A DNA stretch of 64,000 nt from Candidatus Berkelbacteria bacterium (GTDB lineage Bacteria > Patescibacteriota > UBA1384 > 2-12-FULL-50-11): contig CP066697.1 in NCBI GenBank assembly GCA_016432625.1, forward strand, positions 279,363 through 343,362. Reading direction: 5' to 3'. The translations under genes were made by a program, and so were the position numbers. The number at the start of each line of letters is the position of its first letter. Position 1 is the first letter of the stretch. The notes under the pieces are model-generated. The model saw only the letters and a program-made list of their open reading frames with translations, was not told where the DNA came from and did not search any database. Below are positions 12,241-29,484 of this stretch, piece after piece.

Positions 12241-12264
12241 ACGCCTCCCGGTTAGGGGAGGCGT
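12241..12264 (-). terminator. hairpin downstream of the 363-aa gene
   Basis: acgcctccc-ggtta-gggaggcgt stem-loop, 20 nt after the stop on the minus strand. The following T-run is weak. Confidence 0.35.
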
Positions 12265-12284
12265 CTTCGGGTTGCGTCCAAGTG

Positions 12285-13410: not shown

Positions 13411-15042
13411 TTATTGAGTGCTTAAAGATTTCTTCGACTGTCTTTTACGCTGAAAACCGATAGCGAAGCGGTGGACTTCGTCGCGGATTCGACTTAGCAG
13501 TAGCAGCCCTTTGTGGCCACGAGTAACGGCTATTGGCAATTTGCGGCCGGGCAAAAAGACTCGATCAGGTTTTTTTGCTAGCGCTATTATTGTCTTAGGT
13601 TGAATAGGGGCGTCTTTTATCCCTTCAAGGGCGGATTTCAGTTGCTCAACGCCACCGTCGATCACCATTATGTCCGGCGCAGTCCGGGTTGTATCACTGA
13701 AGCGGCGATGCATTACCTCCCGGATCATCGCAAAGTCATTCTGGCCCTCAACGGTTTTTATTTTATAGCGACGGTACTCGTTTTTATCTGGTTTGCCGTT
13801 AACGTAACAGACAGTTGCCCCAACCGGTTCCGAACTACCCAGATTAGAAATATCAACAGCTTCAATACGAGTTGGTAGAGCCGGGAGCTTAAGTAGTTCC
13901 TGAACAGCGACAACGCTTTTAAATGATTGGTCGGTCCTGAGGAGTCTCGTTTCGAGTTTGGCAGCGGCGTTCCTTGCGGCTAGTTCAACCATTTGCCGTT
14001 TCTCGCCGCGCTCGGCAGTCCGCAGTTCGACCTTTTTGCCGGCGACGGTACCGAGAAACTTGGCAATTACATCCTGGTCGCTGATTTCTTCGCTTAACGC
14101 TACAAGACCAGGAATTTCAGAAAAATTTTGGTAAGCACTAATTATAAAACTCCTCACTACTTCATTCTGATTCTCACTGCCGGTTAATTGAAAATAAAAG
14201 GTTTTCTGTCCAGTTACTCGACCTTCTCTTACCATCAGGACGCTGACAGCAGCACTCATTTGGGTTTGAGCGGCGGCAATCACGTCGTAATCATCCTGAA
14301 TTGTAGAGATAACCTTTTGCCGGCTGAGTATTTGCTCAACTGATTGCAGTCGGTCGCGTAACTTGGCTGCTAATTCGTACTGCTCATTCTTCGCAGCCAG
14401 TCGCATCCGATCATCAAGGTCATCAACGAGATGCTTCCTTTTGCCTTGCAAAAATTCAATGGCGCGATCAACTCGCTCCTGATAGGACTCCTCGTCAACC
14501 TCGCCGCTCAGTGGGCAGGTGAACTCGCCGAGCTGACAACTCAAACACGCTCGGTCACGGTTGGGTCGAAGAGGTGTGCTACTGATGTGGATCCCGTAGA
14601 TTTTACGAAGAAACTCCAAAGTGTTTATGGCGTCTCGGCCAGAAAGATATGGTCCAAAGTATATGGCCTTGTCTTTGTTTCGCTTTCGAGTAACTGTAAA
14701 ACGCGGGATCGCCTCGTTTAAGACGACTTTAAGAAACGGGTAAGCCTTGTCGTCGGTAAGCTTAATATTGAAACGGGGCAAGTGTTGCTTGATTAGTGTC
14801 GCTTCGAGCATTAACGCCTCAACCTCGTTGGTTACAACGATAGTTTCCACGTTATGGACAAAACCCATCATCACTTGAATCCAGGGGCGGTCGTTATTTT
14901 TACCAGAGAAATAACTCCCGACCCGGCTTTTAAGGTTTAAAGCCTTACCGACATAAAGAATCTGTCCTGAGACGTCCTTAAATAGGTAAACACCTGGTTT
15001 ATCTGGGAGTCCCTGCCACAAATTCTTCTGGGCACTAATCAT
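13411..15042 (-). CDS. uvrC: excinuclease ABC subunit C (short form lacking C-terminal helix-hairpin-helix domain)
   Basis: N-terminal GIY-YIG (GVYLFKDVSGQILYVGKALNLKSRVGSYF), UvrBC-interaction region and RDEVHRFAIGFQRKR near the C-terminus. It ends about 60 aa earlier than canonical UvrC. Confidence 0.9.
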   Translation of the reverse strand: MISAQKNLWQGLPDKPGVYLFKDVSGQILYVGKALNLKSRVGSYFSGKNNDRPWIQVMMGFVHNVETIVVTNEVEALMLEATLIKQHLPRFNIKLTDDKAYPFLKVVLNEAIPRFTVTRKRNKDKAIYFGPYLSGRDAINTLEFLRKIYGIHISSTPLRPNRDRACLSCQLGEFTCPLSGEVDEESYQERVDRAIEFLQGKRKHLVDDLDDRMRLAAKNEQYELAAKLRDRLQSVEQILSRQKVISTIQDDYDVIAAAQTQMSAAVSVLMVREGRVTGQKTFYFQLTGSENQNEVVRSFIISAYQNFSEIPGLVALSEEISDQDVIAKFLGTVAGKKVELRTAERGEKRQMVELAARNAAAKLETRLLRTDQSFKSVVAVQELLKLPALPTRIEAVDISNLGSSEPVGATVCYVNGKPDKNEYRRYKIKTVEGQNDFAMIREVMHRRFSDTTRTAPDIMVIDGGVEQLKSALEGIKDAPIQPKTIIALAKKPDRVFLPGRKLPIAVTRGHKGLLLLSRIRDEVHRFAIGFQRKRQSKKSLSTQ

Positions 15043-15186
15043 GATCGGGGAAATGGTATCACAGATAAGACTTCAAGTCAGGGGACGAATATGGTTCAAA
15101 AAATTCGCGCCAGGCCGTTGGCGCTTCCTTGCGCTACCCCAATGGCGATCATCGCTACTATATATACCTGTAATAGTATATTCTTC

Positions 15187-15267
15187 GTAGGGGCAAGGGG
15201 CTTCATTGCGAAGTCAGCCCCTTACCCCTACAACCCCATCCCCAACACGCTCCCTACGGGGTTAAGG
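15187..15267 (+). repeat. R repeat copy A: GC-rich hairpin (gtaggggcaaggggc / ttcattgcgaagtca loop / gccccttacccctac) plus downstream box ccccaacacgctccc
   Basis: A near-identical copy in inverted orientation lies at 26504-26581. Related copies lie at 59343-59412, 60070-60220 and 60995-61042. Confidence 0.8.
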
Positions 15268-15331
15268 TGAAAACTTTCGGTTCGTTCCGGAAGGATCGCG
15301 GTAACAGCCCCTCAGTTTCGACTATTAACTA

Positions 15332-15385
15332 ATCGAAAAACAAGCAAATCTAACCCTCAAGCAGGTTATTTACTTGTTTTTCTCC
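15332..15385 (+). repeat. S stem-loop copy A (atcgaaaa-[stem]-aatctaaccctcaagcaggttatt-[stem']-ttttctcc)
   Basis: Direct copy at 26450-26503 with a different but again self-complementary stem. Third copy (reverse complement) at 59425-59475. Possible structured RNA or att-like site. Confidence 0.6.
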
Positions 15386-15543
15386 AGACGCCTGTTCGAA
15401 TGTGCCGGGGGTTGGTCGTTAGGATAGGGGGCGGGCTTCTAAACTCTGAGCCCCCTGTCCTAACATGTAGCCTCGCTTCGTGCGACGAAAAACAATAAAC
15501 AATTAGCATATGCTTCGTAACATAAAAAACATCCTAAACTCAT

Positions 15544-15571
15544 TGACAAATAGATGAGTTTAGAGTATCAT
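15544..15571 (+). promoter_or_regulatory. sigma70-like promoter reading into the GC-rich island
   Basis: TTGACA, a 16-nt spacer, then TATCAT, in an AT-rich patch at the island's left edge. Confidence 0.5.
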
Positions 15572-15584
15572 CTTGCACAACAAG

Positions 15585-15785
15585 TTAGGAAAGAATATTT
15601 TCTACTTGAGCACGTCCAACTAAATAAAGATCGAATGCGTCGGTAGCGCCTTCATCAGTGATTATTGATGACTTTGCGCGCGAATCGGCAAGGTCTTTTT
15701 TGTTGCCCGTGAGGCGGTAGGCCCGTCCTCGGCTTGAGCGATTATGCCTAACGAGGTAGTTGCAACAATAGCCACTCTTTAACAA
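15585..15785 (-). CDS. possible small basic protein (66 aa, TTG start) antisense to the promoter-proximal leader
   Basis: GAGGA lies 5 nt upstream of the TTG. There is no other support. Confidence 0.2.
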   Translation of the reverse strand: MLKSGYCCNYLVRHNRSSRGRAYRLTGNKKDLADSRAKSSIITDEGATDAFDLYLVGRAQVENILS

Positions 15786-16160
15786 CTTGTTTCCTCATTG
15801 CCCACGAGCCTAAGTTCGTGAGTAGCGAGGAGCGGTTGAAGCAATTCGACCGCTGGTAATCCAGTCATGATAAAAAACCACAAAGATCCGCGGGCCGAGA
15901 AGGCTCGCTCTCGTCGAAGTCCGGACTATTCACGCGACCCTGCTGGCTGTTTTGCCAGACATGCCCACAAGGCAGATCGCCGACTTCGCCATATGGGTGT
16001 GAAGGGAAAGCGTCCGAAAATCTACTGGGTGACGACGCTCGGTTGGCGAGCAAGCATTTAGCAGTACAGCGATACGGGCGAGACCAGATCTTCGAATTTG
16101 GTCTCGCCCTCTCATGACACGTTCGATGACTCGAACGTGGCTAGGAGGATAGTAAAAACC

Positions 16161-16511
16161 ATGATTGAATTCGGTCGACTACCGTTTAGCGGAGCCGAGG
16201 ATTTAAAGAGACATCGGGAACGCCTACTTCAGTACATGACTGGACAACACGCCGAGGCCTGCCTGGACAGACTACTTGATGCTGACGCAAAGATCGTCGC
16301 TATCAGCTACACACACGGTCGGGAGTTCGGTAAGGGCGAGGCAATTTACTTCGTCATGTCGGCAGACGAGTCGTCGGTGATGGTCATGAACACAGACGAG
16401 AACAAGCTGACGGGAACCCGACGCGGGAGCTTGCGGGGTGCAGGTGAGAATCTTCTCACGAGATACTTGCTCGACGACAACCTCAGTTCACTTCGCGTGG
16501 CTGCACAGTGA
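16161..16511 (+). CDS. island hypothetical protein (117 aa, cytoplasmic)
   Basis: The ATG is 7 nt after AGGAGGA. Two strong hairpins lie in the leader (16076-16108, 16113-16134). Confidence 0.5.
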   Translation: MIEFGRLPFSGAEDLKRHRERLLQYMTGQHAEACLDRLLDADAKIVAISYTHGREFGKGEAIYFVMSADESSVMVMNTDENKLTGTRRGSLRGAGENLLTRYLLDDNLSSLRVAAQ

Positions 16512-16599
16512 ATACGACACGGTGAGGCGGCAACTTCGGTTGCTCGCCTCACCCTCAATTAAGTTCACAACCACATGTTGCGAACTTTGAGAGAACAAA

Positions 16600-16854
16600 A
16601 TGAAGACTTTACTCGGCCTTTTCTTCGTCACCGTTTGCTGTTTCTTTCTCGGTTCTGGCGGCTTTGTGGCCGTCGAACTCGTCAAGATGATCCAAGCAAA
16701 CCAGATTACATCAACGCAAAGTGCGATCATAACGCTCGTGGTCGTTACCTCACTCGCGTTCGCGGTCGGCTCGTACCGGGCGAGCAAGTACGCGTTCAAA
16801 GGTCAGTTCCGACGGTTCTGGAAGCTGATCAACGGCGGCTGGCTTCCGGTCTGA
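16600..16854 (+). CDS. island small membrane protein (84 aa, 2 TM)
   Basis: Hydrophobic ORF, co-directional and tightly packed with its neighbours. Confidence 0.45.
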   Translation: MKTLLGLFFVTVCCFFLGSGGFVAVELVKMIQANQITSTQSAIITLVVVTSLAFAVGSYRASKYAFKGQFRRFWKLINGGWLPV

Positions 16855-16962
16855 CAACACTTCGAAAACAAGGGCGAAACGGAGCTTCAGCTCCGTATCG
16901 CCCGACCCGCAAAGCTCGTAATAGCGTATGAGTTGTGCGGGTTCTTGGAGGGCCCTCAGTCA

Positions 16963-17301
16963 ATGAAGAAACTCGTCACTCGAGCCTTTACGCTCGTTGA
17001 GATTATGATCATAGTTGTGATCGCAATCGTCCTCTTGCTCGCGATTGCGCTTCCCACCTTTCGCCACGCCAGCGAGACCAGCCGTAAGACCAGATGCATC
17101 GGTGGGCTCGGGCTGATCAGCGCGGCCAAAGAGCAGTGGGTGAAGGACCACAAGAATGGCGGTGGTACGGTTGTGCTTCTGGCTGACCTGTCGCCGCTAT
17201 ACATCAGGGATTTCCCTTCATGTCCCTCGGGTGGCGAGATCACGATCGGCAAGATTGGGGAGGCCCCGACCTGCTCGATTCCTGGTCATGCCTTGCCGTA
17301 A
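16963..17301 (+). CDS. prepilin-type N-terminal domain protein (type IV pilin/pseudopilin-like)
   Basis: MKKLVTRAFTLVEIMIIVVIAIVLL matches the class III signal and hydrophobic segment of type IV pilins (A in place of the usual G before FTLxE). Confidence 0.55.
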   Translation: MKKLVTRAFTLVEIMIIVVIAIVLLLAIALPTFRHASETSRKTRCIGGLGLISAAKEQWVKDHKNGGGTVVLLADLSPLYIRDFPSCPSGGEITIGKIGEAPTCSIPGHALP

Positions 17302-17452
17302 CCAACCCACCCAGTTCGCTCCGGAAGGCGAGACGTAGCTTTGGCTCCGTCTCGCCTCTTCCTTTCAGCCCACACTTTGTTAATTTGAACCTTTCAGTGG
17401 GCTGAAAGGAGGAAACTCCCCGTGATCCCGCGGTTAAGGGTGGAGGAACAAA

Positions 17453-17818
17453 ATGCTAACTTTGCGTAATCAGAACAATGCTCGTACCCTTACCGAATTG
17501 CTAGGATCCCTCACTGGATCGAAGGCGCAGGCGGTGTGCGAGAAGATTCGTCATATGAACGGCATCGTTGAAGCGATCAACGACGCGCCGCGTGGTAATG
17601 CGGGTGTCGAAATCGTTTACTTCGCCGAGCCAGTTCACAACGCACCTGGTGGTGGGCTGTCCCACTATGCCGTCTACTCGGTTTCCACCAACGATATCTG
17701 TGTCTCGCACTGCTATCGAGGCTTGTACAGCTTCTCGTTACAGCGCGAGGAACTCCTGCAAAGGGTCCTCCTCGAAGACGACCGAGAGGCATGGGAAGCC
17801 CTGGCTGGCAAGTGCTAG
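17453..17818 (+). CDS. island hypothetical protein (121 aa)
   Basis: GGTGGAGGA RBS 6 nt upstream of the ATG. Confidence 0.5.
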   Translation: MLTLRNQNNARTLTELLGSLTGSKAQAVCEKIRHMNGIVEAINDAPRGNAGVEIVYFAEPVHNAPGGGLSHYAVYSVSTNDICVSHCYRGLYSFSLQREELLQRVLLEDDREAWEALAGKC

Positions 17819-17937
17819 CTCGTTATCAACTTTGTCGCGAGTCCGACCCTTCGGGGTTCGGGCTCGCGGCTCCGACCTTTACTTCGTGATATTCCCATCC
17901 GTCTTTGACTTCCCAGTCGAGACGGGTGGTGAACAGC

Positions 17938-18195
17938 ATGAAAGTCGTTATATTAGTAATCGTCGCTTGCTTTGTGCTTGGCTGCCAAACTGTGCCGAAA
18001 GAAGATGTTGCCAAAGCTAAAGCTGACTTTTTGCAGCGAACAAGAGGTGTAGTCAACGAAGAGTCCGTTTCTTGTCACGCCTGGGACAAGCTGAACCCCT
18101 ACGTGAGATGTAGTGGTGTAACTGCCCAAGGCAAGGTGATAAGTGCGGTATACCAATGGAATCAAGAGTGGTGCGTGACATTCTACTCCGACTAA
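17938..18195 (+). CDS. island lipoprotein (85 aa)
   Basis: Signal peptide with lipobox (VLGC). Four further Cys. Confidence 0.5.
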   Translation: MKVVILVIVACFVLGCQTVPKEDVAKAKADFLQRTRGVVNEESVSCHAWDKLNPYVRCSGVTAQGKVISAVYQWNQEWCVTFYSD

Positions 18196-18310
18196 ATGGG
18201 GTGGATAAGTCATGAGGCTACCCGATACATCAACCTTTGGCGTCCCGAGGGGACGCTCACTCGTAAGCGACAAGAAAACGTCGCCGACAACCGTTCCTAC
18301 CGGAGGTGGG

Positions 18311-18574
18311 ATGAAGCAAGTACTGTCTGCCGTATGGTCGTGGCTCCTAGCCTTGGGCGCTTGGTGCTTCGAAAACCCTCGCCGTGGTCTAATCACGATC
18401 GCTGCGATTCTGATCCTCGTCTACCCGCCGATTCTCGGTAAGGTAGTTGGTCGGATATTTGAGGCGCTCGCTCCGTTCATTGGCTTATTGCTGATGTTCG
18501 GGATGATCTACCTCATTATCAAGCCACTCCTGCCGAAGCGGCCCAAACCCCAGCAGCGGAGGTCGGACCGATGA
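18311..18574 (+). CDS. island small membrane protein (87 aa, 2 TM)
   Basis: GGAGGTGGG RBS directly upstream of the ATG at 18311. Confidence 0.5.
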   Translation: MKQVLSAVWSWLLALGAWCFENPRRGLITIAAILILVYPPILGKVVGRIFEALAPFIGLLLMFGMIYLIIKPLLPKRPKPQQRRSDR

Positions 18575-18690
18575 CCGCCTGCTGCGACTCTCGGGCGAAA
18601 CGGATCTCGTATCCGTCTTCGCCCTTCAATGAAGCTGCTGAACGCGTGACGTTCGACAGTTTCTAGAAATCTCACGGAGGAAACACACAC

Positions 18691-19044
18691 TTGGGACAAT
18701 CACCTACCATAGGACAGAGTCTGGAATTTCCGGACTTCTTCTACTTCTTGCGGTTCGGTCAAGAAAGCTCGCATTTTGCCGTCACGACCCACCTGGGCGA
18801 GTCGGCGATGTTGTGTTTTCGCTCGATCCGCGACATGGACGTTTACGCTAAGCCCTTCGAGGACACTCCGGGCATGTCGCGTTACGATTCCGACGCTCAG
18901 TCGATTGACTCGGCGCGGGATTTTCTTCGGGAACACTTCCCGAGCTTCCGTGCACTTGTCCTATTCGAGCCGGGCTATGTGCCCGGGCGAGATGAGGCGC
19001 GGCTGTCGGTGCATATCCCGCCGCCGCAACCCGTGATCGGGTGA
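18691..19044 (+). CDS. island hypothetical protein (117 aa, TTG start)
   Basis: GGAGGA lies 10 nt upstream of the TTG. Confidence 0.4.
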   Translation: MGQSPTIGQSLEFPDFFYFLRFGQESSHFAVTTHLGESAMLCFRSIRDMDVYAKPFEDTPGMSRYDSDAQSIDSARDFLREHFPSFRALVLFEPGYVPGRDEARLSVHIPPPQPVIG

Positions 19045-19132
19045 CCACTTACGCCTAACTTGGCGAGGTGGTCGCCCACCTTTCCGTCACCAGGAATTCG
19101 CTATGGCGATATTCGTGGTGGGGGATAAGCGT

Positions 19133-19285
19133 ATGAAACAGTATTCTTCTGAGTCCGATCAGCGCCGCCAGGAACGTTATGAGTTTTGGCGACTGCTTGG
19201 ACTTGGGGCTTTGTGCCTCGTCATCACTACCGCCGTTGTGGTTATCGCAACCCAATGGTGGAACAACCCGATCACCGTCAGGTGA
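19133..19285 (+). CDS. island small C-tail-anchored membrane protein (50 aa)
   Basis: GGGGGA RBS. Single C-terminal hydrophobic helix. Confidence 0.35.
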   Translation: MKQYSSESDQRRQERYEFWRLLGLGALCLVITTAVVVIATQWWNNPITVR

Positions 19286-19301
19286 AGGAGCGCAATGCGC
19301 A

Positions 19302-19610
19302 ATGGAAGAGCTTTTGGCTAGTTTTGACTTTCCGGAAGAGTTCTACATCGTCAGGCTTCTAGATTCCGAGGGCTACGGCCGTACCAATTACTGGGGACTA
19401 CCAGCCATTCTTTGTTTTCAGTTGAAAGATGATGCAGAGAACTTCGCCCGAAGGATGAACCGGGGCAACGAGATCTTGGTGGTCTCGCTCGATTTTGCCA
19501 GGGATCTGGCACTGTCAAGTCACGTGTACCGCTACCTCGTTCTCTACCAGCCTGAGACGCCGGAAGAAGAGTATCCGGCGATCTATGTTCCCGTTTCCAA
19601 AACAGGGTGA
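19302..19610 (+). CDS. island hypothetical protein (102 aa)
   Basis: GAAGGAG RBS upstream. Acidic, soluble. Confidence 0.45.
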   Translation: MEELLASFDFPEEFYIVRLLDSEGYGRTNYWGLPAILCFQLKDDAENFARRMNRGNEILVVSLDFARDLALSSHVYRYLVLYQPETPEEEYPAIYVPVSKTG

Positions 19611-19734
19611 CCAATGGCAAACCAGCCAAACGTCACCCACCTTTCCTCCAGCATGAAGCAATTCGTGCTTGGGGATGAGGGAAACCTCGAGACCTGTAAG
19701 TCCTGACCGCAAGGCAGGCTGGGTAAGGAAAGAA

Positions 19735-20151
19735 ATGGCAGACGAATGGGATGACATCCGCGGCGACATTCGCCAAGGACACGGTATCTTCTTTCGGTAC
19801 TTCTGGCTGTGGCTGATCATCTTGATCGGCTTGAGCTGGGGCGGGACCCTCGCCTACAAGGCTTGGATTCGTCCGACCGAAATCAACTTGGAGACGAAGG
19901 CGATTCGCCAGTCGATCCAGTATCAGGACACGGGCATCACCGCGATGCTCGAGAACGTCAAGGGTTACAAACGGCTCGAAACGGATATCCTGAAGTACGA
20001 AAGCGACCCGGCCAACGCCAAGCTCGTCGAGGGCATGCGCTCACAGCAGCGCTCGCTCTTGGACGACATCGAGACCACTGCCGATCGTATCGGCCGCGAC
20101 CGCGTGCCGGATTCGGTGCGCAGCTTCCTGGCAGCTCACGAGGGAGGGTAA
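19735..20151 (+). CDS. island N-terminally anchored membrane protein (138 aa)
   Basis: AAGGAAAG RBS. One TM helix, then a soluble domain. Confidence 0.5.
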   Translation: MADEWDDIRGDIRQGHGIFFRYFWLWLIILIGLSWGGTLAYKAWIRPTEINLETKAIRQSIQYQDTGITAMLENVKGYKRLETDILKYESDPANAKLVEGMRSQQRSLLDDIETTADRIGRDRVPDSVRSFLAAHEGG

Positions 20152-20158
20152 CGAGACA

Positions 20159-20746
20159 ATGAAAAACCTTTGCACGATCCTTTTGGTCACGGGCATTTTC
20201 TTCGTCTCGGGCTGTGGCTCGGATAACAAGGCAACCGCTGACACCCGTGAGCAGGTGGCTGTGAATAGGCAGCAGGAGATCTACGTGAAGAACCAGCCGA
20301 TCCCGGTCTTCGATTGGAGCCGGACGCGTGATCTTCTGATCCAATTCTACGTTGCCCAAAACGGGGCAGCGGCGACCTGGAGCTACATAACGCCCCAAAT
20401 GGGCGCGACTGTGCTGTTCGAAACACCGAGCCAGGGCTACCCGATCCCGATGGATACTCAGCTCACCAACCCGCTCCAAGCGGTTTGGGAAAGCAATAGC
20501 TATGGGTTGGGTGGACTTACACTCGCACAAGCGGAGCCTAACGGGGTCTTCACCTCGCCGAATACCGACGCGACAATCGTCATGGCGGTAAACGGCGACG
20601 GCACGCTCTCGCCGATCTACACCGAGCTCAAGGTGACCACGTTCCCATTCCCTGTCCGCTGGGATAAGGAGAAGGGGCAGTGGGTTCGGATCGAGGGCAA
20701 GGAGCCTTCTATCAAACTCATCCCCAAAGCGGGGAAGGGTGGATAG
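20159..20746 (+). CDS. island lipoprotein (195 aa)
   Basis: Signal peptide with lipobox (VSGC). GAGGGAGGG RBS. Confidence 0.55.
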   Translation: MKNLCTILLVTGIFFVSGCGSDNKATADTREQVAVNRQQEIYVKNQPIPVFDWSRTRDLLIQFYVAQNGAAATWSYITPQMGATVLFETPSQGYPIPMDTQLTNPLQAVWESNSYGLGGLTLAQAEPNGVFTSPNTDATIVMAVNGDGTLSPIYTELKVTTFPFPVRWDKEKGQWVRIEGKEPSIKLIPKAGKGG

Positions 20747-20846
20747 CGGTTCTTGCCTCTCACCCCTTCGGGTCAGTCCGGCGCAAGCCGGGTCTGGCCC
20801 ACCTTTCCCCGTTCACAATCAATTGTGGGCGGAGAGGAGGTTTGAT

Positions 20847-21122
20847 GTGTACTTCTTACTGTTCGCCGGGCTTTTCGTTGCCTTCTTCTCAGGCTTAGCA
20901 CTGCTGGTCACCCTTATCGTGTACAACTGGGGCATGTTTGGTGCGCGCAAGCGGTTTGGCCGGGAAGAGTTTTGGTCGACACTCGCCAGCGGAAACGATG
21001 ATTTCGACGATGTACGCGAAAATGCGATATGCATACCCGCAATCGCCGTTATCGCTGTCCTAGACCTCATACCCTGGCTCACGAGCAAGCTATTTCGCCG
21101 TCCCAACCAAAAGACGGCGTGA
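20847..21122 (+). CDS. island 2-TM small protein, paralog 1 (GTG start)
   Basis: GGAGG lies 6 nt upstream of the GTG. Two hydrophobic helices. Confidence 0.45.
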   Translation: MYFLLFAGLFVAFFSGLALLVTLIVYNWGMFGARKRFGREEFWSTLASGNDDFDDVRENAICIPAIAVIAVLDLIPWLTSKLFRRPNQKTA

Positions 21123-21228
21123 GCTTCTCATTCGGCTGAAGCGTGTGCATACGCAAACGTTTCAGCCCCCAACTGGATTCTTGACCAGCAGGTCGAGGGT
21201 TCTGAGGGAAACCTTAAGGAGAGAAGAA

Positions 21229-21525
21229 ATGGAAACCCTAAGCAACCTGCTAGGAGTTTTGTTGTTTTGGACTGTCATATCCTTCGGCTTTGCGTCCTTC
21301 GCCCGAGCATCCATGCCGGAGCGTGGGGACAACATGTTCGAGTGGTTTCGACGTATGTGCTTCGGACTTGAGCCAAATGACGGACCGATTTGGCTGGTAG
21401 TTGTCGCTCTGACGCTGCCAACCACTATACTGATCGGGATTTGGGAGTGGGTAGTTTATCCACCTGTTTCCCGAGCAAGTCGCAAGTTTCTTGAACGCAT
21501 CCAAGCCACAGGCAATGCGTCGTGA
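21229..21525 (+). CDS. island 2-TM small protein, paralog 2
   Basis: AAGGAGAG RBS. Preceded by a hairpin plus a conserved 37-bp ttgacc-containing motif. Confidence 0.5.
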   Translation: METLSNLLGVLLFWTVISFGFASFARASMPERGDNMFEWFRRMCFGLEPNDGPIWLVVVALTLPTTILIGIWEWVVYPPVSRASRKFLERIQATGNAS

Positions 21526-21598
21526 CCCGGCTGACGGTACTCGTACCGTCAGCCATCGCTCCTTGACCGTCAGGTAACTGATGATCGGGGATACGAAC

Positions 21599-21913
21599 AT
21601 GTATAACAACATCGACTCACTAACTTGGTGGTGGACTGTAATACTGCCTAGTTGGGTAGTGGCGAATCTGGTGGTGTGGTTCCTCTTCTGTTTGCTCCAC
21701 GCCACAGCTGGTGGACCGGCTGACGGACTCATCCTGTTCTTGAAAAAGCCCTTTGAGAGCCTAGACGAGAACACAGACCGACTTCCTGAACGACTACTCA
21801 TCGTAGGATTCGTTCTATTTTTCCTACCGCTCTTCGTTGCCGTTCAGCTTTGTGTTCTGATTGCACGGCTTGCACGCTTTCTTTGGATTGTCGCTACCAT
21901 AAAACGTGCATAA
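21599..21913 (+). CDS. island 2-TM small protein, paralog 3
   Basis: Same cassette layout as paralog 2. Preceded by a perfect 12-bp-stem hairpin and a ttgacc motif. Confidence 0.45.
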   Translation: MYNNIDSLTWWWTVILPSWVVANLVVWFLFCLLHATAGGPADGLILFLKKPFESLDENTDRLPERLLIVGFVLFFLPLFVAVQLCVLIARLARFLWIVATIKRA

Positions 21914-21999
21914 ACGCTCGCTTTGACTGACGGACACTCTCCGTCAGTCCCCGACTGAATTCTTGACCAGATGGTCGAGGGTTCTGAGGGAGGAACTAA

Positions 22000-22197
22000 T
22001 TGAAAGTGTTTGAATCGTTCATTTCTTGGCTTCTTCAAGCTTGGCTGACCGCCGCGTTTGAGCTCCACACCTTCAAGTGCGAGCAGTGTTTGAACGTTGA
22101 AATGGGGTTAACCGCTCCCGACAGCTTATGCCAGCGAGGCAAAGAGCTCAAAGCCGCGATCGGCGCGGAAGAAACCAACTGTGGGCAACCAAACTAG
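22000..22197 (+). CDS. island small Cys-rich protein (65 aa, CxxC...C...C; TTG start)
   Basis: GGGAGG upstream. Possible zinc-ribbon-like fold. Confidence 0.35.
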   Translation: MKVFESFISWLLQAWLTAAFELHTFKCEQCLNVEMGLTAPDSLCQRGKELKAAIGAEETNCGQPN

Positions 22198-22365
22198 GAT
22201 TGCCCACCCAACTGAGTTTTCAAATCTTTGAAGACTTTGAGGGTTTGTCTGGCCGGATCCGCTCCGGACGCAACGGTATCAGATGAAGTAATTCATTTTG
22301 AAATTTGCCGTTGCACTACCGCCGGAGCGGTTTTGGCTGGACAACGGTTCAGCAGGAGTGAACGT

Positions 22366-22662
22366 ATGTTACAAGTCTGGGTGAATGCTCAACTTGTCCG
22401 CCGAGGCGCTGTAGAAAGCGATTCGGAGGGCATCGCCTACTGCCGTTTCCGCTCTAAAGACGGAGACGTGGTGGCCACTTTCAACGAACGCAAGATTCAG
22501 GAAGAGGGCGGCAACGTCCTCATACCAGGAGCTTGCGACGACCTGATCGGCGAAAATGGCTTCATCGCCGTTAAGCCTGACTACGAGCCGTTTCTTTGGG
22601 GGGTTCACGGCCGCCCGAGAGAAACCGTATTGGTTCCGACAGCTGAGGTGATCTCAAGGTGA
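22366..22662 (+). CDS. island hypothetical protein (98 aa)
   Basis: AGGAGTG RBS 6 nt before the ATG at 22366. Confidence 0.45.
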   Translation: MLQVWVNAQLVRRGAVESDSEGIAYCRFRSKDGDVVATFNERKIQEEGGNVLIPGACDDLIGENGFIAVKPDYEPFLWGVHGRPRETVLVPTAEVISR

Positions 22663-23321
22663 AAAGCCTGACGATCGCCGTATCGCTTATCGTTGCTGCA
22701 ACGGGTTTGATCTTGGCGCTTATGCCGCTGATCTACCCAGGGCAACTTTACCTGATCGAAATCGGCGGCAGCATGGCCGTTGTCGCCGCAGCGTTGCTAA
22801 TTTGGGCAACACTTGTTCTGCGGGAGACTTGCTACTACGAGCTGAGGCTTGTTCGCGAGTCTGGCGGTGACATAGAGGGTTGCCTGGATGTCATGAGCCA
22901 CGACGGGCGAACATTCGTCAGTATCGGGGACATCTACCACCTGATCGATCAGTTCAACGACTCAGCGAACGGCAGCACTCACCTTAAGGTTGAGCGCCGG
23001 CAGATCTCAGCAGACAAGGCTAGTTCGCTTTGCGAACTGTCCTTTGAGGAAGTCTGGGGGATTGAGCCGCTCGAAGCCGAGCTGCTCCTCTTTGCCACGA
23101 CGCAAAGCCAAGGCGCTACGCTTCGTTACGAGGAGATGCCTGAGTTCAAGCTGGCTCTGGTTCACTACCGCTCGGAAATCCTGGCGATGGAAACCACGGA
23201 GTTCGACGGACTTCTGGCTGTCGTCAAGGGTTTGGCCGACAACCACAAGTTCATACGGCTACAAACTAGCCTGCGAACAACGGCGGCCAGTTATGAGGTG
23301 TTCGATGGAATACGCTCATAA
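22659..23321 (+). CDS. island membrane protein (220 aa, 2 N-terminal TM; GTG start)
   Basis: Overlaps the preceding stop (GTGA). Confidence 0.5.
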   Translation: MKSLTIAVSLIVAATGLILALMPLIYPGQLYLIEIGGSMAVVAAALLIWATLVLRETCYYELRLVRESGGDIEGCLDVMSHDGRTFVSIGDIYHLIDQFNDSANGSTHLKVERRQISADKASSLCELSFEEVWGIEPLEAELLLFATTQSQGATLRYEEMPEFKLALVHYRSEILAMETTEFDGLLAVVKGLADNHKFIRLQTSLRTTAASYEVFDGIRS

Positions 23322-23418
23322 TCACGACCACAACCTGGAGGCGCACGAATGAGAGTAATCTCACCCGTGCGCCCACCAACTGCCCGACAAGCTACCGCTT
23401 GAAAGGCTGAGGTTAAAC

Positions 23419-23874
23419 GTGAATAGACCCACATTAGTGCCACTCGTACTCGGGTTTATTTTCGGGTACCTACTTTTCAACACTGGTTTCTTCGGAGGTC
23501 CGTGTGTATTGCCACTGCTCTTGTTGATCGCACTCTACTCGCGAGGTATAGCCAGGATGCGTGAAGCTCATCGCTGGGCTGACATGCAGGCTATTCCCGC
23601 GGGCGACTGGTTGGTGCAGCTAAACATCTTCACCAACATTGGTTGCCAGAAGCATGAGCATCAAGTCCGTGGTGAGTTCAGGAGGCTCATACCCTTCATC
23701 GGCATTCGTTCGCCCGAAGAGGTAGAGCGGATTCGTCAGATGGTGGCGGATGCTTCGGAGGGTGGCTACGACTGGGTCACACTCTACAACCCTCCGGGAT
23801 TACCAAAACAGTTCGAACATCAGGCAACCTCGACGATTACTATCAGGTATTCGCCGTTGGAGGCCCCATCATAA
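23419..23874 (+). CDS. island membrane protein (151 aa)
   Basis: Two N-terminal hydrophobic helices. Confidence 0.45.
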   Translation: MNRPTLVPLVLGFIFGYLLFNTGFFGGPCVLPLLLLIALYSRGIARMREAHRWADMQAIPAGDWLVQLNIFTNIGCQKHEHQVRGEFRRLIPFIGIRSPEEVERIRQMVADASEGGYDWVTLYNPPGLPKQFEHQATSTITIRYSPLEAPS

Positions 23875-23946
23875 GGCGCACGGAACATCTTGTGCGCCCA
23901 CTTCCCCACCGCCTGCGTACAATGCGGACGGTGAGGAGAGTGAAGA

Positions 23947-24180
23947 ATGTATCGCAACATAAGGGGATCATCAGAATTCAAAGTTGGGTGCGTAGTACTG
24001 TTCGCCATGATCGTGCTCGCGATAATGATGATTCCCATAAAGAAACAACGTGACTGGCTAATGCTGTCCTGGATGGTAGCCGCTTGGGCGACCCTCTTTT
24101 TTATTCCCTGGCTCAGATATATTCGCCGGGAAAGAGAGCTTGAAGCACAGAAAAGGTTGAAAGAAAATCAAGCGCCTTGA
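23947..24180 (+). CDS. island small membrane protein (77 aa)
   Basis: GAGGAGAG RBS. Two hydrophobic helices. Confidence 0.45.
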   Translation: MYRNIRGSSEFKVGCVVLFAMIVLAIMMIPIKKQRDWLMLSWMVAAWATLFFIPWLRYIRRERELEAQKRLKENQAP

Positions 24181-24263
24181 CCTTTCGCAAAAGCGCCGAG
24201 TGAAACATCTCGGCGCACCCCCTCTCGTTTCGAACTTCGGTTCAAACGTGGAGGTAGGTGAAT

Positions 24264-24887
24264 ATGAACCGGCTCACAGTAATACTTCATGCCGGTTTAG
24301 TTCGGCTACTGAAGATCGTCGTTTGGCCAGTACTTCGGTACTTTGGCCCCGTCACGTGTGTTAAAGGGGCTACGCTTCCAAAAAAGGGAGGAGTCCTGAT
24401 TGTTGCCAACCACGAAAGCGTCGCCGATCCAGTCGTCGTGCAGTACACCTGCGCGCGACCGATCTGCTTCATGGCAAAAGCGGAGCTTTTCAAGCGCCCA
24501 GTGCTAAGTTTCGTGATTCGGCTGTTTCGCACGTTCATCGTCGAACCCAACACCTCAGATATCAGAGCAATTAGGCAAGCCATCGACTTACTGAAAGCTG
24601 GTGAGGTGGTGTTGGTCTTTCCGGAAGGTAAGATTAACGGCGAAAGTGGGGCTTTGCTTGGATTTCGCAAGGGCGTCGGGCTCATCGCCCGAAAGTCTGG
24701 GGCGACGGTGATTCCATGTGCCATTAGGCACTCCCGCCGCGTCTGGGCAAAGCCATCTTGGATACCAACTGGCCGTCACCAGATGACGGTCATCTGGGGC
24801 AAGGCGTATCGGTTCCGAGTCAGTGATGACAACGAAACAATTGCCACCGAACTTCGACAAGAAGTTTCTGCCCTCCTTGGGCGATAG
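24264..24887 (+). CDS. lysophospholipid acyltransferase (PlsC/LPLAT family)
   Basis: NHESVADP (HxxxxD acyltransferase motif) and FPEG motif. GGAGGTAGG RBS. Confidence 0.65.
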   Translation: MNRLTVILHAGLVRLLKIVVWPVLRYFGPVTCVKGATLPKKGGVLIVANHESVADPVVVQYTCARPICFMAKAELFKRPVLSFVIRLFRTFIVEPNTSDIRAIRQAIDLLKAGEVVLVFPEGKINGESGALLGFRKGVGLIARKSGATVIPCAIRHSRRVWAKPSWIPTGRHQMTVIWGKAYRFRVSDDNETIATELRQEVSALLGR

Positions 24888-24957
24888 GCCTCGAGCCTCT
24901 CGCCCCGCTTCCTCTCGTCTTTGCGACCACTACGGTCGTAGGCGGGGAGGAGAGTGA

Positions 24958-25203
24958 ATGTTTATCGGTGATCGAATCGACAAGATCTGCCAACTTGTCG
25001 CCCTTCTAGGGGTTCTTTTCTGCGTCGGCTCTATGTGGGTCTTCGCTCGTCTGGATAAACCGGTTACTTGGGCTTATTACTCAATGTTAGGCCTTGTTGT
25101 AACATTGGTTGCCCTCACGGTTATTCTCTTTCGGGGAAAACGCTATCAGAAGATGTGGCAGAAAGCCCGATGCATGTTCCTGAAGGAGTGGCCCGATGAC
25201 TAA
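24958..25203 (+). CDS. island small 2-TM membrane protein (81 aa)
   Basis: GGGGAGGAGAG RBS. Confidence 0.5.
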   Translation: MFIGDRIDKICQLVALLGVLFCVGSMWVFARLDKPVTWAYYSMLGLVVTLVALTVILFRGKRYQKMWQKARCMFLKEWPDD

Positions 25204-25292
25204 CATGTCCGTTATCCGGCGCAGCGACTTGCACCCGCTGCGCCCGCTTCCTGACCGCCCGTGAAGAACACGGACGGCGAGGTAGGTGATTA

Positions 25293-25454
25293 ATGTCGAC
25301 AAGTGGAAAATGCCTCATGCTGGGATCGATTGTCCTTGGTTCGATTGCCGGCACCCAGCTACACAGTTTCTGGGTAGGTTTGGGCGTCTGGTTCGGGCTG
25401 GCGATATACGGCTCGGCATTCTTGGTCGCTCAGAACAAAGGGGAAACAAGTTGA
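25293..25454 (+). CDS. island small hydrophobic protein (53 aa). Not in the ORF track; preferred over the listed 25286..25504 frame
   Basis: GAGGTAGGTGA lies 5 nt upstream of the ATG. Product MSTSGKCLMLGSIVLGSIAGTQLHSFWVGLGVWFGLAIYGSAFLVAQNKGETS is membrane-like, as are its neighbours. Confidence 0.35.
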   Translation: MSTSGKCLMLGSIVLGSIAGTQLHSFWVGLGVWFGLAIYGSAFLVAQNKGETS

Positions 25455-25548
25455 GAATCCGCGAAGCGCCGGGCTTAAAAACCCCGGCGCTTTTTGCGTT
25501 TTAAAAAGGTGTAAAATACTTTCATCTGAAACGAGCAGGAGGTGAAAG

Positions 25549-25833
25549 ATGAGCTCGGGCAGTGTTCCTCAAAGCGGCCAGTCCAAAAGTAACCGGCCGA
25601 ATGACTATCAAAGTCTTGGTGGGGCAGGGAACTTCTTCCTTGAGCCCGACGAGGTTTATGGAACTGCACCGGACTATGCCAGTTATCTCAAGGTCATTGG
25701 TCTGATCTTGGGCGAATCGGGCATCGTTTACGGTCTCTACCGGTTCGGCAGTCCGTTGGCGTTAGTGGTTCTCGTCGCCATAATCTTTTTGGCGATCTTA
25801 GCCTACGGCGTTAATAGGGTGCTGTTTGAATAG
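25549..25833 (+). CDS. island C-terminally anchored membrane protein (94 aa)
   Basis: GCAGGAGGTGA RBS. Confidence 0.5.
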   Translation: MSSGSVPQSGQSKSNRPNDYQSLGGAGNFFLEPDEVYGTAPDYASYLKVIGLILGESGIVYGLYRFGSPLALVVLVAIIFLAILAYGVNRVLFE

Positions 25834-25888
25834 CGGCTGGACGATTTCCAAAGATGTCGGGTCAAACTCGGCAAAGGAGGTGGGTCTA

Positions 25889-26140
25889 ATGGTGATCCAA
25901 GAGAAACCTCGAAACGACGAGTGGCGTGAGCGTTACGCTCACCCGCATCAGACGCGCTTGAGCCGTGTGGCTGAGGAAATACGGTTAATACCCGTGGTTC
26001 TCGGTCTGGCGATTGGTGGACTGGTGCTTGTTGGTCTGTCGGTTGGCTTCTCCGCGCCAATATATGCCGGAATTATTCTGTTCTCATTCGGAATACTGGC
26101 GGAATGGCTGCTGGGCAGACACTATGACTACACGTCTTGA
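25889..26140 (+). CDS. island membrane protein (83 aa)
   Basis: AAAGGAGGTGGG RBS before the ATG at 25889. Confidence 0.5.
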   Translation: MVIQEKPRNDEWRERYAHPHQTRLSRVAEEIRLIPVVLGLAIGGLVLVGLSVGFSAPIYAGIILFSFGILAEWLLGRHYDYTS

Positions 26141-26449
26141 AACTAGGACGTGGCTCGGGGCGGCTTCGGCCGCCCCAATTCTATATAAAAATGTTGCGCT
26201 GACTTGACGCATAGGCATACACTATTACTGAGTTGATCTCGGCAACCGTCGAGGTGGCTTGCATCGGAGGGAAAACATGAAGAAACTCTATCGTTTCCGG
26301 TCGCACGCGACGCACAAGCAGCACAGACGTCTACTGCATATGCTCGCCGCGAGCTTCATCGGCCGGGTGGCCTGGGGGTAGGCCGACGCAATCCTTCGAC
26401 ATCAAGTACGGCCCGGGTTTCTAACCCGGGCCGCTTGCTTAATATAAAT

Positions 26450-26503
26450 ATCGAAAATGGTGCGAATCTAACCCAAAGCAGGTTATTCGCCCATTTTCAT
26501 CCG
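26450..26503 (+). repeat. S stem-loop copy B (direct repeat of 15332-15385 with compensatory stem)
   Basis: atcgaaaa-tggtgcg-aatctaacccaaagcaggttatt-cgcccat-tttcatcc. Confidence 0.6.
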
Positions 26504-26581
26504 TAACCCCGTAGGGAGCGTGTCGGGGATGGGGTTGTAGGGGTAAGGGGGTGACTTCGCAATGAACCCCTTTACCCCTAC
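26504..26581 (-). repeat. R repeat copy B (inverted copy of 15187-15267), abutting the uvrA stop codon
   Basis: Its reverse complement reads gtaggggtaaaggggttcattgcgaagtcaccccccttacccctacaaccccatccccgacacgctccctacgggg. Confidence 0.8.
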
Positions 26582-29484
26582 TCACTTTTTTCTACAGACG
26601 GAGAATGTTTTGCTTTCTTGCCAAAAATAACGGGCTCTAAAACTTTCCCGGTTAACGAGGCTTTGGTTAACGCCACCTCTTCTGGCGTTCCTTTGGCAAC
26701 AATCGTGCCGCCTGCTTCGCCACCTCCGGGTCCTAAATCAATCAGCCAGTCAGCACTTTTGATAACGTCTAGGTTGTGTTCGATAACAACGATTGTGTTA
26801 CCACGGTCAACCAGCTTCTGAAGAACGAGCAGTAGGCGTTCGACGTCGGAAAAATGAAGGCCGGTCGTCGGTTCATCTAAAACATAGAGAGTTTTGCCGG
26901 TATCGCGCCGTGAGAGCTCGGAAGCGAGCTTGATTCGTTGCGCTTCACCGCCGGACAACGTTGTTGCCGGTTGTCCGAGGCGAATATAGCCCAAGCCAAC
27001 TTGCTGCAAAGTGCGCAGTTTGTCAGCGAGAACGCCGATATTTTCAAAAAATTCCAACGCTTCATCGACGGTCATATTGAGAACCTGGGAGATATTCTTC
27101 CCTTTCCAGGTAACTTCAAGCGTCTCGCGGCTATAGCGTGTGCCCTTACAAACGTCGCAGGTGATATAAACATCGGGCAGGAAGTTCATTTCGATCTTAA
27201 TTACCCCGTCGCCCTGACAGTTTTCGCAACGTCCACCGACAACGTTAAAAGAAAACCGACCTGGTTTATAACCGCGACTTCGGGCGGAAGGCGTAGCGGC
27301 GAAAAGCTGGCGAATCGGGTCAAAAGCCTTGGTGTAGGTGGCCGGGTTGCTGCGCGGAGTACGGCCGATAGGGGACTGATCGATTTCGATTATCTTGTCG
27401 ATATGTTCGGTCCCGGTGATCGACTCGTGACTGCCCGGCACGTCGCTTTTTAAGCCGAGTTTCATACTAATTCCTTTACTAAGAATCTCAGTGACTAGGG
27501 TTGATTTACCCGATCCAGAAACTCCCGTCACGGCGACAAAACGCTTTAGCGGAATGTTGGCGGTGATGTTCTTGAGATTATTCTCTTTAGCTCCGTGAAT
27601 GGTGATGTTTGTGTGCCCTTTCTCGATCGTGCGTCGTTCTGGCAGGGCAATTTTCTTATCGCCGCTTAGGTACGGCGCGGTGATTGATTTGGGGTTCTTT
27701 AAGACTTCGTCTAAAGTTCCGGCGGCAACGATTGTCCCGCCGTGTTCACCAGCTCCCGGGCCGATATCGACGACGTAGTCCGCTTCGCGAATAGTTGCCT
27801 CGTCGTGCTCAACAACAATTACCGAGTTGCCTAAATCTCGCAGACGTTTCAGGGTTTCAATGAGTCGGTCGTTGTCGGTTGGGTGAAGGCCGATTGTCGG
27901 CTCGTCCAAAACATACAGGATACCGACAAGCGCCGAACCAATCTGTGAGGCAAGGCGGATGCGTTGGCTTTCACCGCCGGCCAGAGTTGTAGCGGTGCGA
28001 TCAAGCGTCAAATAGTTGAGCCCGACTTTTCCCAGGAATTCGAGTCGGCTAGCAATTTCGAGCAATACCTTGCCGGCGATATTGGCTTCGCGGGCGTTTA
28101 ATTTTAATTCATCAAAGAATGCTCGTGCCTTGTCGATTGTGAGTTGCGACACTTCAGCGATATTTTTGCCGCCAACTTTTACGATTAGTGCGTCTTCCTT
28201 CAGACGAGCGCCTTTGCAGGTTTTGCACTCGCTGGAGAGCATATAGCGCTCGATTTGCTCGCGCACCATGTCTGACTCGGTTTCATGGTAGCGAGATTCA
28301 AGGTGCGGAATGAGTCCACGAAAACCAACCATAAAATGATGGGCAACACCGGCGGAGTAGTACTTTAGTTTTAGCTTTAACGGCGCTCCGACGCCGTAAA
28401 GAAGCTTATTTAAGTCTTGTTTCTCAAGTTTTTTGATCGGCACGTCAACGCTCATCCCAAAATGCTCGGCAGCGTTTTTAAGCAAAATTCCGTAATAGTT
28501 TGTTGGCGAGTACGTCCAGGGCATAATACCGCCCTCGGCAATTGATTTATTGTCGTCGGGAATGATTAAAACCTCGGAAACCTCTTTTTTGAAGCCTAAG
28601 CCGTGACAGTCTTCGCAAGCGCCATAAGGGCTATTGAATGAAAACGACCGGGGCGAAATTTCACCCAAAGAAAAACCGTCGTATGGGCAGGCTAAATCCT
28701 CGCTCAGCATCAATTCGTCGTCTTTGCCTTCCTGAGCAATAATAACCAAGCCTTTAGAAAGCTTAATTGCTGTTTCCATCGCTTCGTTCAAGCGGGTGCG
28801 ACTTGATTGGCCCATAATTAGTCGGTCAACTACCACTTCAATGTTGTGGGCTTTATAGCGGTCCAGCTGGATTGAATCAGTCAGGGCGTACATCTCGTCG
28901 TTGACTCGAACGCGGGCAAAACCACCCTTATATAGGTCGTAGAGTAATTGGTGATATTCGCCTTTGCGGCCACGGACGACCGGCGCAAGGACGATTACGC
29001 GGGTGTCTTGCGGCAACGACTCGACCAGGTCAACCATCTGGTCGGTCGTTTGGCGCGAGATTGGCCGGCCGCATTTAGGACAAAACGGGGTCCCAACCCT
29101 GGCAAAAAGTAGTCTCAGGTAGTCGTAAATTTCTGTCACCGTGCCAACCGTCGAGCGTGGATTATGGGAGACGGTTTTTTGGTCGATTGAAATCGCTGGC
29201 GAGAGCCCTTCGATATAATCTACGTCGGGTTTCTCCATTTGACCCAAAAATTGCCGGGCGTAGCTTGAGAGCGATTCCATGTAACGGCGCTGTCCTTCGG
29301 CGTAAATCGTGTCGAAGGCCAGGCTGGACTTGCCAGAACCTGACAGGCCAGTGAAAACAATTAGTTTTTCGCGCGGCAACTCAAGGTCAATGTTTTTGAG
29401 ATTATGTTCGCGGGCGCCTTTAATAACTATAGTTCCTGCGGAACTTTCGAGGGCTTTGCTTGAGATCTTTTCTTCCGTTGCCAT
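26578..29484 (-). CDS. uvrA: excinuclease ABC subunit A
   Basis: 968 aa. Duplicated ABC ATPase ([20 protein letters not shown]), zinc-finger Cys clusters and LSGGE signature motifs. Confidence 0.95.

Follow-up and report, generated by a model that had tools for sequence, protein, structure and literature searches.

Two-hairpin modules between the small membrane-protein genes of a variable uvrA/uvrC island in a Candidatus Berkelbacteria genome

The early mRNA of phage T7 carries RNase III signals between its cistrons (R1.1 and others), and similar stem-loops are present in polycistronic operons. In enterobacteria, the repetitive extragenic palindromic sequences and bacterial interspersed mosaic elements (REP/BIME) are transcribed and are known to stabilise the upstream mRNA; integron arrays place open reading frames (ORFs), separated by attC sites, behind a single promoter (Pc); and boxA/Nus leaders are found in rrn operons, in lambda nut and in suhB. 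Bacteria belonging to the Candidate Phyla Radiation (CPR) are episymbionts not yet cultured, whose genomes abound in small membrane proteins that cannot be annotated. The locus described here belongs to such a genome: a stretch of 64,000 nucleotides (nt) of a Candidatus Berkelbacteria bacterium (contig CP066697.1, positions 279,363 to 343,362, forward strand; hereafter the window), in which the spacers between small genes carry two hairpins, A after the stop codon and B before the next ribosome-binding site. An earlier note on this DNA had pointed to three small genes and to a repeated 37-nt motif containing TTGACC. This motif is most likely a conserved RNA hairpin and not a promoter, and the reading favoured here, with a confidence that we would place about midway, is that it belongs to sense-strand RNA modules lying between the cistrons of one long operon in a variable CPR island.

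The repeated motif and its structural family

The motif stands in the middle of an island of about 11 kb, in which about 24 small ORFs of 45-220 amino acids (aa), all on the + strand, extend from 16.1 to 26.1 kb. Around it, the following features succeed each other (TM, transmembrane segment):

20847-21122, +: gene 1, GTG start, 91-aa orphan with two hydrophobic segments, Shine-Dalgarno sequence GGAGAGGAGG
21134-21167, +: hairpin A1, 15-bp stem without U-tract, followed by CCCCAACT
21165-21213, +: module copy 1, CCC-AACU-[12-bp hairpin at 21175-21202 with four G.U pairs]-UGA-GGG, containing the 37-nt motif
21229-21525, +: gene 2, 98-aa orphan 2-TM protein, identical to NCBI HZB70_01185 (Candidatus Berkelbacteria bacterium metagenome-assembled genome)
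21529-21554, +: hairpin A2, perfect 12+2+12 palindrome without U-tract
21560-21591, +: second hairpin of the gene 2-gene 3 spacer, UCCUUGACCGUCAGGUAACUGAUGAUCGGGGA, whose 3' arm carries the GGGGA Shine-Dalgarno sequence of the 21599 start
21599-21913, +: gene 3, 104-aa orphan 2-TM protein (110 aa from the ATG at 21581, the start preferred by gene callers)
21925-21949, +: hairpin A3, 10-bp stem without U-tract
21947-21995, +: module copy 2, hairpin at 21957-21984
22006-22197, +: fourth ORF, after module copy 2, 63 aa (65 aa from the TTG at 22000), four Cys, not a 2-TM protein, called in L002

The 37-nt motif, which the earlier note had seen in two copies, is matched exactly twice in the 64 kb and never in 100 shuffles, the second match standing at 21955-21991 rather than two nucleotides upstream at 21953-21989; it forms part of a 48-nt repeat (21162-21209 and 21944-21991, 90% identical). 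Folded, it reads GGAUUCUUGACC-AGCA-GGUCGAGGGUUC, a 12-bp hairpin with four G.U pairs, so that the 37-nt motif would correspond to hairpin B and its flanks. Copies 1 and 2 differ at three positions, all neutral for the structure (one G.U to A-U change and two loop bases). The title of the note had set a hairpin and a motif before each gene: the full motif does precede gene 2, and its second copy the fourth ORF, whereas gene 3 is preceded by a different hairpin and gene 1 by none. A shorter version reported before gene 3, 'ccttgaccgtcagg', is present, although at 21561-21574 (off by one) and with only CCTTGACC in common with the motif. The motif is associated with genes, as a repeated intergenic module separated by variable coding inserts.

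The family was searched for with an nhmmer profile of two copies and then with a covariance model, with about 1 Mb of other related loci as controls. The comparison loci (L050, L051, L053, L057 and L121) were fetched from metagenomes as relatives of UvrC, whose identity to the protein of the window is 56% for L053 and 72% for L050. The covariance-model family comprises six copies, four in the window (copies 1 and 2 included) and one each in L053 and L050; the other members, with a weak additional candidate, are:

22204-22248, +: module copy 3, 24.3 bits, flanks CCCAACUG / UUGAGGG kept and stem sequence entirely different, preceded by a hairpin at 22181-22207
16551-16598, +: divergent module copy, 20.9 bits, E 0.014, basal helix CUC/GAG, upstream of an 84-aa 2-TM gene (16600-16854)
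L053, 8274-8226, sense of the insert's genes: nhmmer match inside the uvrA-uvrC insert of that locus
L050, 114-68, sense: found with the covariance model, 19.3 bits
23372-23418, +: weak possible copy, CCCACCAACUG-N24-CUGAGG, 11.5 bits, E 1.5, not significant alone

All six copies are on the sense strand of island intergenic spacers, and those at 22204 and 16551 of the window, in L053 and in L050 directly follow an A hairpin. In the control loci the top score was at most 15.6 bits, and a second round of the covariance model gave no significant new members. The L053 element, GAAUUCCCAACC-CUGU-GGUUGGUGGUUC with flanks CCCAACC and CGAGGGAA, keeps 11 of the 12 pairs of the window motif, with two double compensatory changes.

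The consensus structure consists of a CCC/GGG basal helix, a purine-rich internal loop (AAYU / YGA) and an upper helix of 9-12 bp. In the six-member alignment, 96.6% of the cells are paired and compensatory changes on both sides affect 8 of the 15 pairs, which none of 500 shuffles reaches; RNAalifold independently predicts the same structure. The stem cells include 13 G.U pairs against three non-pairs, and therefore fit an RNA of the sense strand, not DNA or the antisense strand.

Folding of the spacers follows the same direction. Those near the motif are all far more stable than their dinucleotide shuffles (z-scores of -6.6, -4.6, -6.2 and -4.0), and the 20 island spacers (55-168 nt) reach a mean z of -4.7 in sense vs -3.35 in antisense orientation (Wilcoxon p 0.008), with a mean of -2.8 for the other spacers of the window. 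The plan of hairpin A after the stop codon, linker, and hairpin B before the ribosome-binding site is present in 15 of these 20 spacers, hairpin B lying just 5' of the ribosome-binding site or overlapping it, and the island spacers of L050 have the same plan with a CUUCC-type linker. The linker is C-rich in the window, of the form (G)CCCAC(C)CAAYU or CCCACCUUUCC. The string (G)CCCACC recurs directly after A hairpins at 19074, 19635 and 20797 (also at 22202 and 23371), where it continues as TTTCC or (C)AACTG, and CACCUUUCC is similar to the anti-Shine-Dalgarno end of 16S rRNA.

Two spacers deserve separate mention. That at 22198-22365 is unusually long (168 nt, -75.8 kcal/mol, z about -8) and contains, downstream of module copy 3, an inverted repeat with 23-nt arms (22245-22267 / 22322-22344) that may be a further structured RNA. 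In L053 (8180-8420, -), hairpins A and B occupy a stretch of about 230 nt between two canonical terminators; as the module is followed there by nothing but a 10-codon mini-ORF, it may be part of a small non-coding RNA.

Within Rfam, no family matches the window at its gathering score, and the region 15000-26500 has only two chance-level miRNA matches at E<=1, so the module appears to be undescribed. Exact-pattern scans for the motif gave 38 single matches, by chance or in coding sequence of unrelated taxa, in the GTDB representative genomes (among which the source genome is absent), and seven matches in IMG/VR, all in unrelated coding sequence. A sigma-54 promoter, a K-turn and a tRNA T-arm were considered from the letters of the motif and discarded.

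Stop-proximal hairpins, promoter and leader

Could each small gene nevertheless be its own transcription unit, with hairpin A as an intrinsic terminator and TTGACC as the -35 box of the gene that follows, possibly one read by an alternative sigma factor? The hairpins begin 3-25 nt past the stop codons, TTGACC agrees with the -35 hexamer at five of six positions, CPR bacteria may follow promoter rules of their own, and the L053 module, being located between two canonical terminators, might head a short transcript. The earlier note had proposed both halves of this explanation, calling the hairpins terminators and suggesting a -35 element. The stop-proximal stem-loops do exist, but they have no U-tract, unlike the genome's own terminators: the 8 nt past the stem contain on average 2.1 T for the stop-proximal hairpins of the island vs 4.9 for post-gene hairpins elsewhere in the window (p = 0.001), and C-rich sequence comes in place of the U-tract. 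Classical terminators with stem and U-tract are found outside the island after the genes ending at 33517, 34558, 59291, 60851 and 62747.

The promoter half fares no better. The note had itself seen no obvious -10 at 17 bp, and a TAnnnT is absent 16-18 nt downstream of the hexamer (the sequence reads GAGGGA / TGAGGG / AGGGAA), where the promoter scan reports no site. Across the family the hexamer becomes TTGACC, CCAACC, TTCAA, ACAACC or TCGGCT, and its columns co-vary with the 3' arm; the conserved positions are the flanks CCCAAY / YGAGGG and not a -35/-10 pair. Since the hexamer is variable, co-varies with its partner and lacks a -10, TTGACC is read here as a stem arm and not as a -35 box, and separate transcription units seem quite unlikely.

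The A hairpins themselves were largely where the note had placed them (21134-21167 and 21529-21554, the latter indeed a perfect 12+2+12 palindrome), the third extending to 21949 instead of ending at 21945. They do not all carry ctgacgg/ccgtcag, hairpin A1 reading GGCTGAAGCG...CGTTTCAGCC, but the three share the stem base G-R-C-T-G-A and keep their pairing through compensatory changes. A 16-nt similarity between an arm of hairpin A2 and the coding sequence of gene 3 (21522-21537 vs 21711-21726) is at chance level by our estimate.

Candidate signals for the start and the end of a long transcript are located at the two ends of the island:

15543-15571, +: sigma-70-like promoter preceding the first island gene, TTGACA-17-TATCAT, with the highest score in the window (11/12)
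15605-15799, +: conserved leader, 75% identity over 199 nt with L050, boxA-like ACTCTTTAACAAC at 15774-15786
25460-25498, +: terminator, the only canonical stem and U-tract on the island sense strand, GCGCCGGG...CCCGGCGCTTTTTGCG

A 9-bp inverted repeat, TAAACTCAT-N10-ATGAGTTTA, contains the promoter and could serve as an operator; TTGAC and a TA-rich -10 are also kept at this position in L050. The stretch 15-26 kb is poor in promoter-like sites, with two found vs 5.8 +/- 2.1 expected. The leader is non-coding, since its alignment with L050 has frameshifting indels; it contains GCCACTCTTTAACAACTTG, identical in the window and L050, and the only exact occurrence of CTCTTTAACAA in the window. About 200 nt downstream of the promoter, the boxA-like element, of which GCCACTCTTTAACAACTTGTTTC is identical in L050, can be compared with the published boxA consensus GYTCTTTAANA (PMC5725501): ACTCTTTAACA agrees at nine of the ten specified positions, with a mismatch at position 1, the consensus being gamma-proteobacterial and possibly not that of this organism.

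The uvrA/uvrC island, its genes and its borders

The island is flanked by uvrC (13411-15042, -) and uvrA (26578-29484, -), with uvrB further on. Its GC content is 54-55%, vs 47-50% for most of the remaining window. An independent Logan assembly contig agrees with window positions 11229-31525 at zero differences, and an exact lookup of the UvrC protein in public assemblies gave a single arrangement and hence no island in the inverted form. In L051, L057 and L121, uvrC comes directly after uvrA, with gaps of about 80-530 nt; at the same site, L053 has a 3-kb insert and L050 at least 5 kb of small opposite-strand ORFs. Not one of the window's island proteins matched the loci of the relatives by tblastn, and an 87-aa two-TM protein (18311-18574) is weakly similar to an L050 ORF (26% over 70 aa). 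These inserts, with their near-total difference in gene content, therefore designate the uvrA/uvrC site as a shared island with a fast turnover.

Most products of the island are membrane or secreted proteins, at least one hydrophobic segment being present in 18 of 24, and a single gene has a Pfam domain (PlsC-type acyltransferase). The three ORFs described in the earlier note were found at the same coordinates and are also called by independent annotation; each encodes two hydrophobic 19-residue segments, as the note had it. In all three, TM1 and TM2 are separated by an acidic loop of about 30 aa and the C-terminal tail is basic, a layout that by the positive-inside rule suggests N-in/C-in helical hairpins. 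Their sequences are as unrelated as they had looked (Smith-Waterman z <= 1.0 among the three), and paralogy was rejected on this basis; the cassette-like duplication once proposed is not borne out at the level of genes, the proteins being dissimilar to each other. Nor is the comparison with immunity proteins or holins supported, in that the three products match nothing in Pfam, PHROG, NCBIfam, PADLOC or PDB, and no lysis, endolysin or bacteriocin partner was seen, the neighbouring genes having no such domain.

It may be asked whether anything here is functional: the ORFs could be spurious or decaying, the repeat could remain from a local duplication that happened recently, and the hairpins could have come along incidentally with foreign DNA rich in GC. 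Among 5.8 billion clusters each of the three proteins finds only itself, and HMMER, run exhaustively on 1.84 billion representatives, gives no homologue of gene 3; the codon score is weakly positive, the GC content of the island is raised as described above, and the assemblies show no population variation with which selection could be tested. Yet the coding signal is there: when codon log-likelihoods are modelled on the 21 longest genes of the window (whose mean is 0.285), the + frame is the best of six for genes 1-3 (+0.05 to +0.09), their GC1>GC3>GC2 profile agrees with that of the genome's long genes, and an overlapping antisense ORF of 183 aa (21250-21801), which would span a spacer, has a negative score. 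A Shine-Dalgarno sequence precedes each start, the three proteins share the same two-TM, acidic-loop and basic-tail layout, and the module is kept with compensatory changes at 56-72% UvrC identity, where neutral spacer DNA should be randomised. The absence of function is thus very unlikely, and genes 1-3 are genuine, lineage-restricted small membrane proteins and strict orphans.

The borders of the island are marked by repeats:

15187-15267: left arm of an inverted repeat, beside uvrC, duplicating the uvrA 3' end/terminator region in inverted orientation
26501-26581: right arm, starting at the uvrA stop codon (26578-26580, -)

These 81-nt arms are 93% complementary, 11,233 nt apart, and bracket the whole 11.2-kb island; the block 15197-15273 is conserved in L050 (86%). 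The inverted repeat could mark an invertible or once-mobile segment. Just inside its arms lie direct repeats of about 53 nt, 74-80% identical (15332-15385 vs 26450-26502), with the sequence ATCGAAAA..GCRAATCTAACCC.AAGCAGGTTATT, which may be att-like remnants of an insertion.

Another possibility is that the A and B modules act as DNA, as repeated or mobile elements or recombination sites (of the REP/BIME, miniature inverted-repeat transposable element or attC type), forming cassette boundaries that promote the gain, loss and shuffling of genes. Several observations point this way: the repeat boundaries are sharp, with unrelated sequence on either side, two 48-nt direct repeats bracket genes 2 and 3 at a distance of 782 bp, and the same type of module occurs in two further genomes, in islands that have almost no gene content in common with this one. 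Small ORFs of the same orientation, apparently promoterless, follow one promoter as in an integron cassette array, the island is bracketed by the inverted and direct repeats, and there is a superficial likeness between the linker CCCAAC and the attC R'' box (RYYYAAC). However, the 50 ORFs scanned for domains (30 large ORFs of the window and 20 island or small proteins) yielded no integrase, transposase or RAYT, the modules have no copies outside island spacers in the 64 kb or in about 1 Mb of related loci, and the assemblies on record show one arrangement only. The elements measure 40-49 nt, shorter than attC (about 55-140 nt), their AAC is not paired with GTT and there is no R''/R' inverted pair; the stems are 15% G.U and the sense strand folds better than the antisense, whereas attC sites fold as the bottom DNA strand. 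A DNA-level element consequently appears unlikely.

Other features of the surroundings can be mentioned. Inside the island, 16963-17301 is a type IV pilin/pseudopilin-like gene whose product has an N-terminal hydrophobic segment of the prepilin type and, in NCBIfam, matches ComGC, PilA and GspG weakly. Downstream of uvrC, two large ORFs of 633 and 363 aa (10190-13376, -) in DNA of raised GC (53-57%) have no Pfam match and no counterpart in related loci, and uvrC for this reason has lineage-specific DNA on either side. The ORF at 20159-20746, directly upstream of gene 1, encodes a predicted lipoprotein of 195 aa matching phrog_24725 (unknown function), with homologues (37-47% identical) in Vibrio phages (T5-like Thalassavirus, Demerecviridae; Schitoviridae), where they sit among strings of small, mostly hypothetical genes; it also matches Synechococcus and Clostridium phages, at identities below 60% (not listed). 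A scan of viral contigs with this lipoprotein found none. Comparisons with phages of the region 20700-22300 (blastn against phage records) and of 22 concatenated island proteins (tblastn) returned nothing, and the lipoprotein apart, no phage or plasmid-like signal was seen at the island. Literature searches found no description of an island of this kind.

Weighing the operon reading and comparison with known systems

The favoured reading draws on the anatomy, conservation, covariation and strand bias of the modules and on their island context. The island would be transcribed as one long unit from the promoter at 15543-15571, through the conserved leader with its boxA-like element, down to the canonical terminator at about 25.46-25.50 kb, and the spacers would be sense-strand RNA modules (hairpin A, C-rich linker, hairpin B) rather than terminator-promoter pairs. 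The read-through of a 10-kb unit in which a strong hairpin follows almost all genes would be explained by a termination-resistant transcription complex led by boxA. The modules might then act on the mRNA as processing or stability punctuation, with one hairpin protecting the 3' end, a linker cleaved as a single strand and another hairpin at the 5' end, in the way of the T7 RNase III sites or of REP/BIME elements, or alternatively as a protein-binding or translation-tuning element; either way, the cistrons of one long transcript could differ in their level of expression. Any such role, in the processing or stability of the mRNA, in its translation or in the binding of a protein, is put forward from the anatomy.

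Several points weigh against this reading. Three of the six family members were found by a covariance model that rewards pairing, and the alignment was fitted to that structure; the divergent copies, taken singly, have borderline E-values (0.002-0.2); and the scan covered 64 kb of a genome of about 769 kb, so that copies may exist outside the island. The single operon and the read-through of the A hairpins are what we infer, and the promoter scan used a consensus from which CPR promoters may depart, so internal promoters could be missed. The boxA-like element departs from the gamma-proteobacterial consensus at its first position, and the rRNA boxA of this organism may itself depart from that consensus. 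Sequestration of the Shine-Dalgarno sequence by the C-rich linker, attractive by eye, is not claimed: the mean pairing probability of these sequences is 0.69 vs 0.65 with shuffled upstream sequence (p 0.30), and a role in translational masking is therefore unsupported.

What would such a locus mean? It gives some order to the dark matter of CPR small membrane proteins, with a fast-turnover island at a fixed site, a conserved promoter and leader, and a structured RNA module that is absent from Rfam and kept with compensatory changes down to 56% UvrC identity. Should the module govern how a long operon is processed or translated, it would represent a new regulatory RNA motif, and its covariance model a handle for finding such islands in other CPR genomes; should it be ordinary mRNA punctuation, the gain would mainly be a corrected annotation, with neither promoter nor terminators. 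A wider proposal, speculative and in our opinion improbable as a whole, is that of an undescribed type of CPR locus: a hypervariable set of orphan small membrane-protein genes at the fixed uvrA/uvrC site, bracketed by an inverted repeat and headed by one conserved promoter and a boxA-type antitermination leader, in which a two-hairpin RNA module (a new motif class) would delimit each cistron, both as expression punctuation and as a boundary for gene swapping, and so diversify the envelope repertoire at the episymbiont-host interface.

Among described systems, the RNase III sites of T7 resemble the modules as structured elements that separate almost all the genes of a long transcript from one strand (the single transcript being presumed here), formed as sense RNA by a helix with an asymmetric internal loop, beside ribosome-binding sites. 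Unlike them, the island module has a lower helix of just 3 bp and two separate hairpins per spacer, without any sequence relation, and its cleavage is putative. REP/BIME elements are likewise short GC-rich hairpins without U-tracts, often paired, just past the stop codons of co-transcribed genes; in contrast to REPs, which are genome-wide, conserved in sequence and associated with RAYT, the island copies are confined to island spacers in the loci searched, their A and B hairpins are of different kinds, and structure rather than sequence is conserved.

With integron arrays, the island has in common small same-orientation ORFs, mostly of unknown function, behind a single promoter, and separators conserved in structure more than in sequence. 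It differs by the lack of an IntI among the ORFs scanned, by elements that are too short and by the missing R''/R' pairing (R'' RYYYAAC, R' GTTRRRY): the 5' flank CCCAAY faces YGAGGG and pairs only through CCC/GGG, and both the strand bias and the G.U pairs point to RNA. The leader, finally, recalls those of the boxA/Nus type in having a close relative of GYTCTTTAANA downstream of a promoter, conserved in a related genome, at the head of a putative long operon rich in hairpins; it is set apart from them by an A instead of a G at position 1 and by the protein-coding nature of the operon, the binding of Nus factors being putative here.

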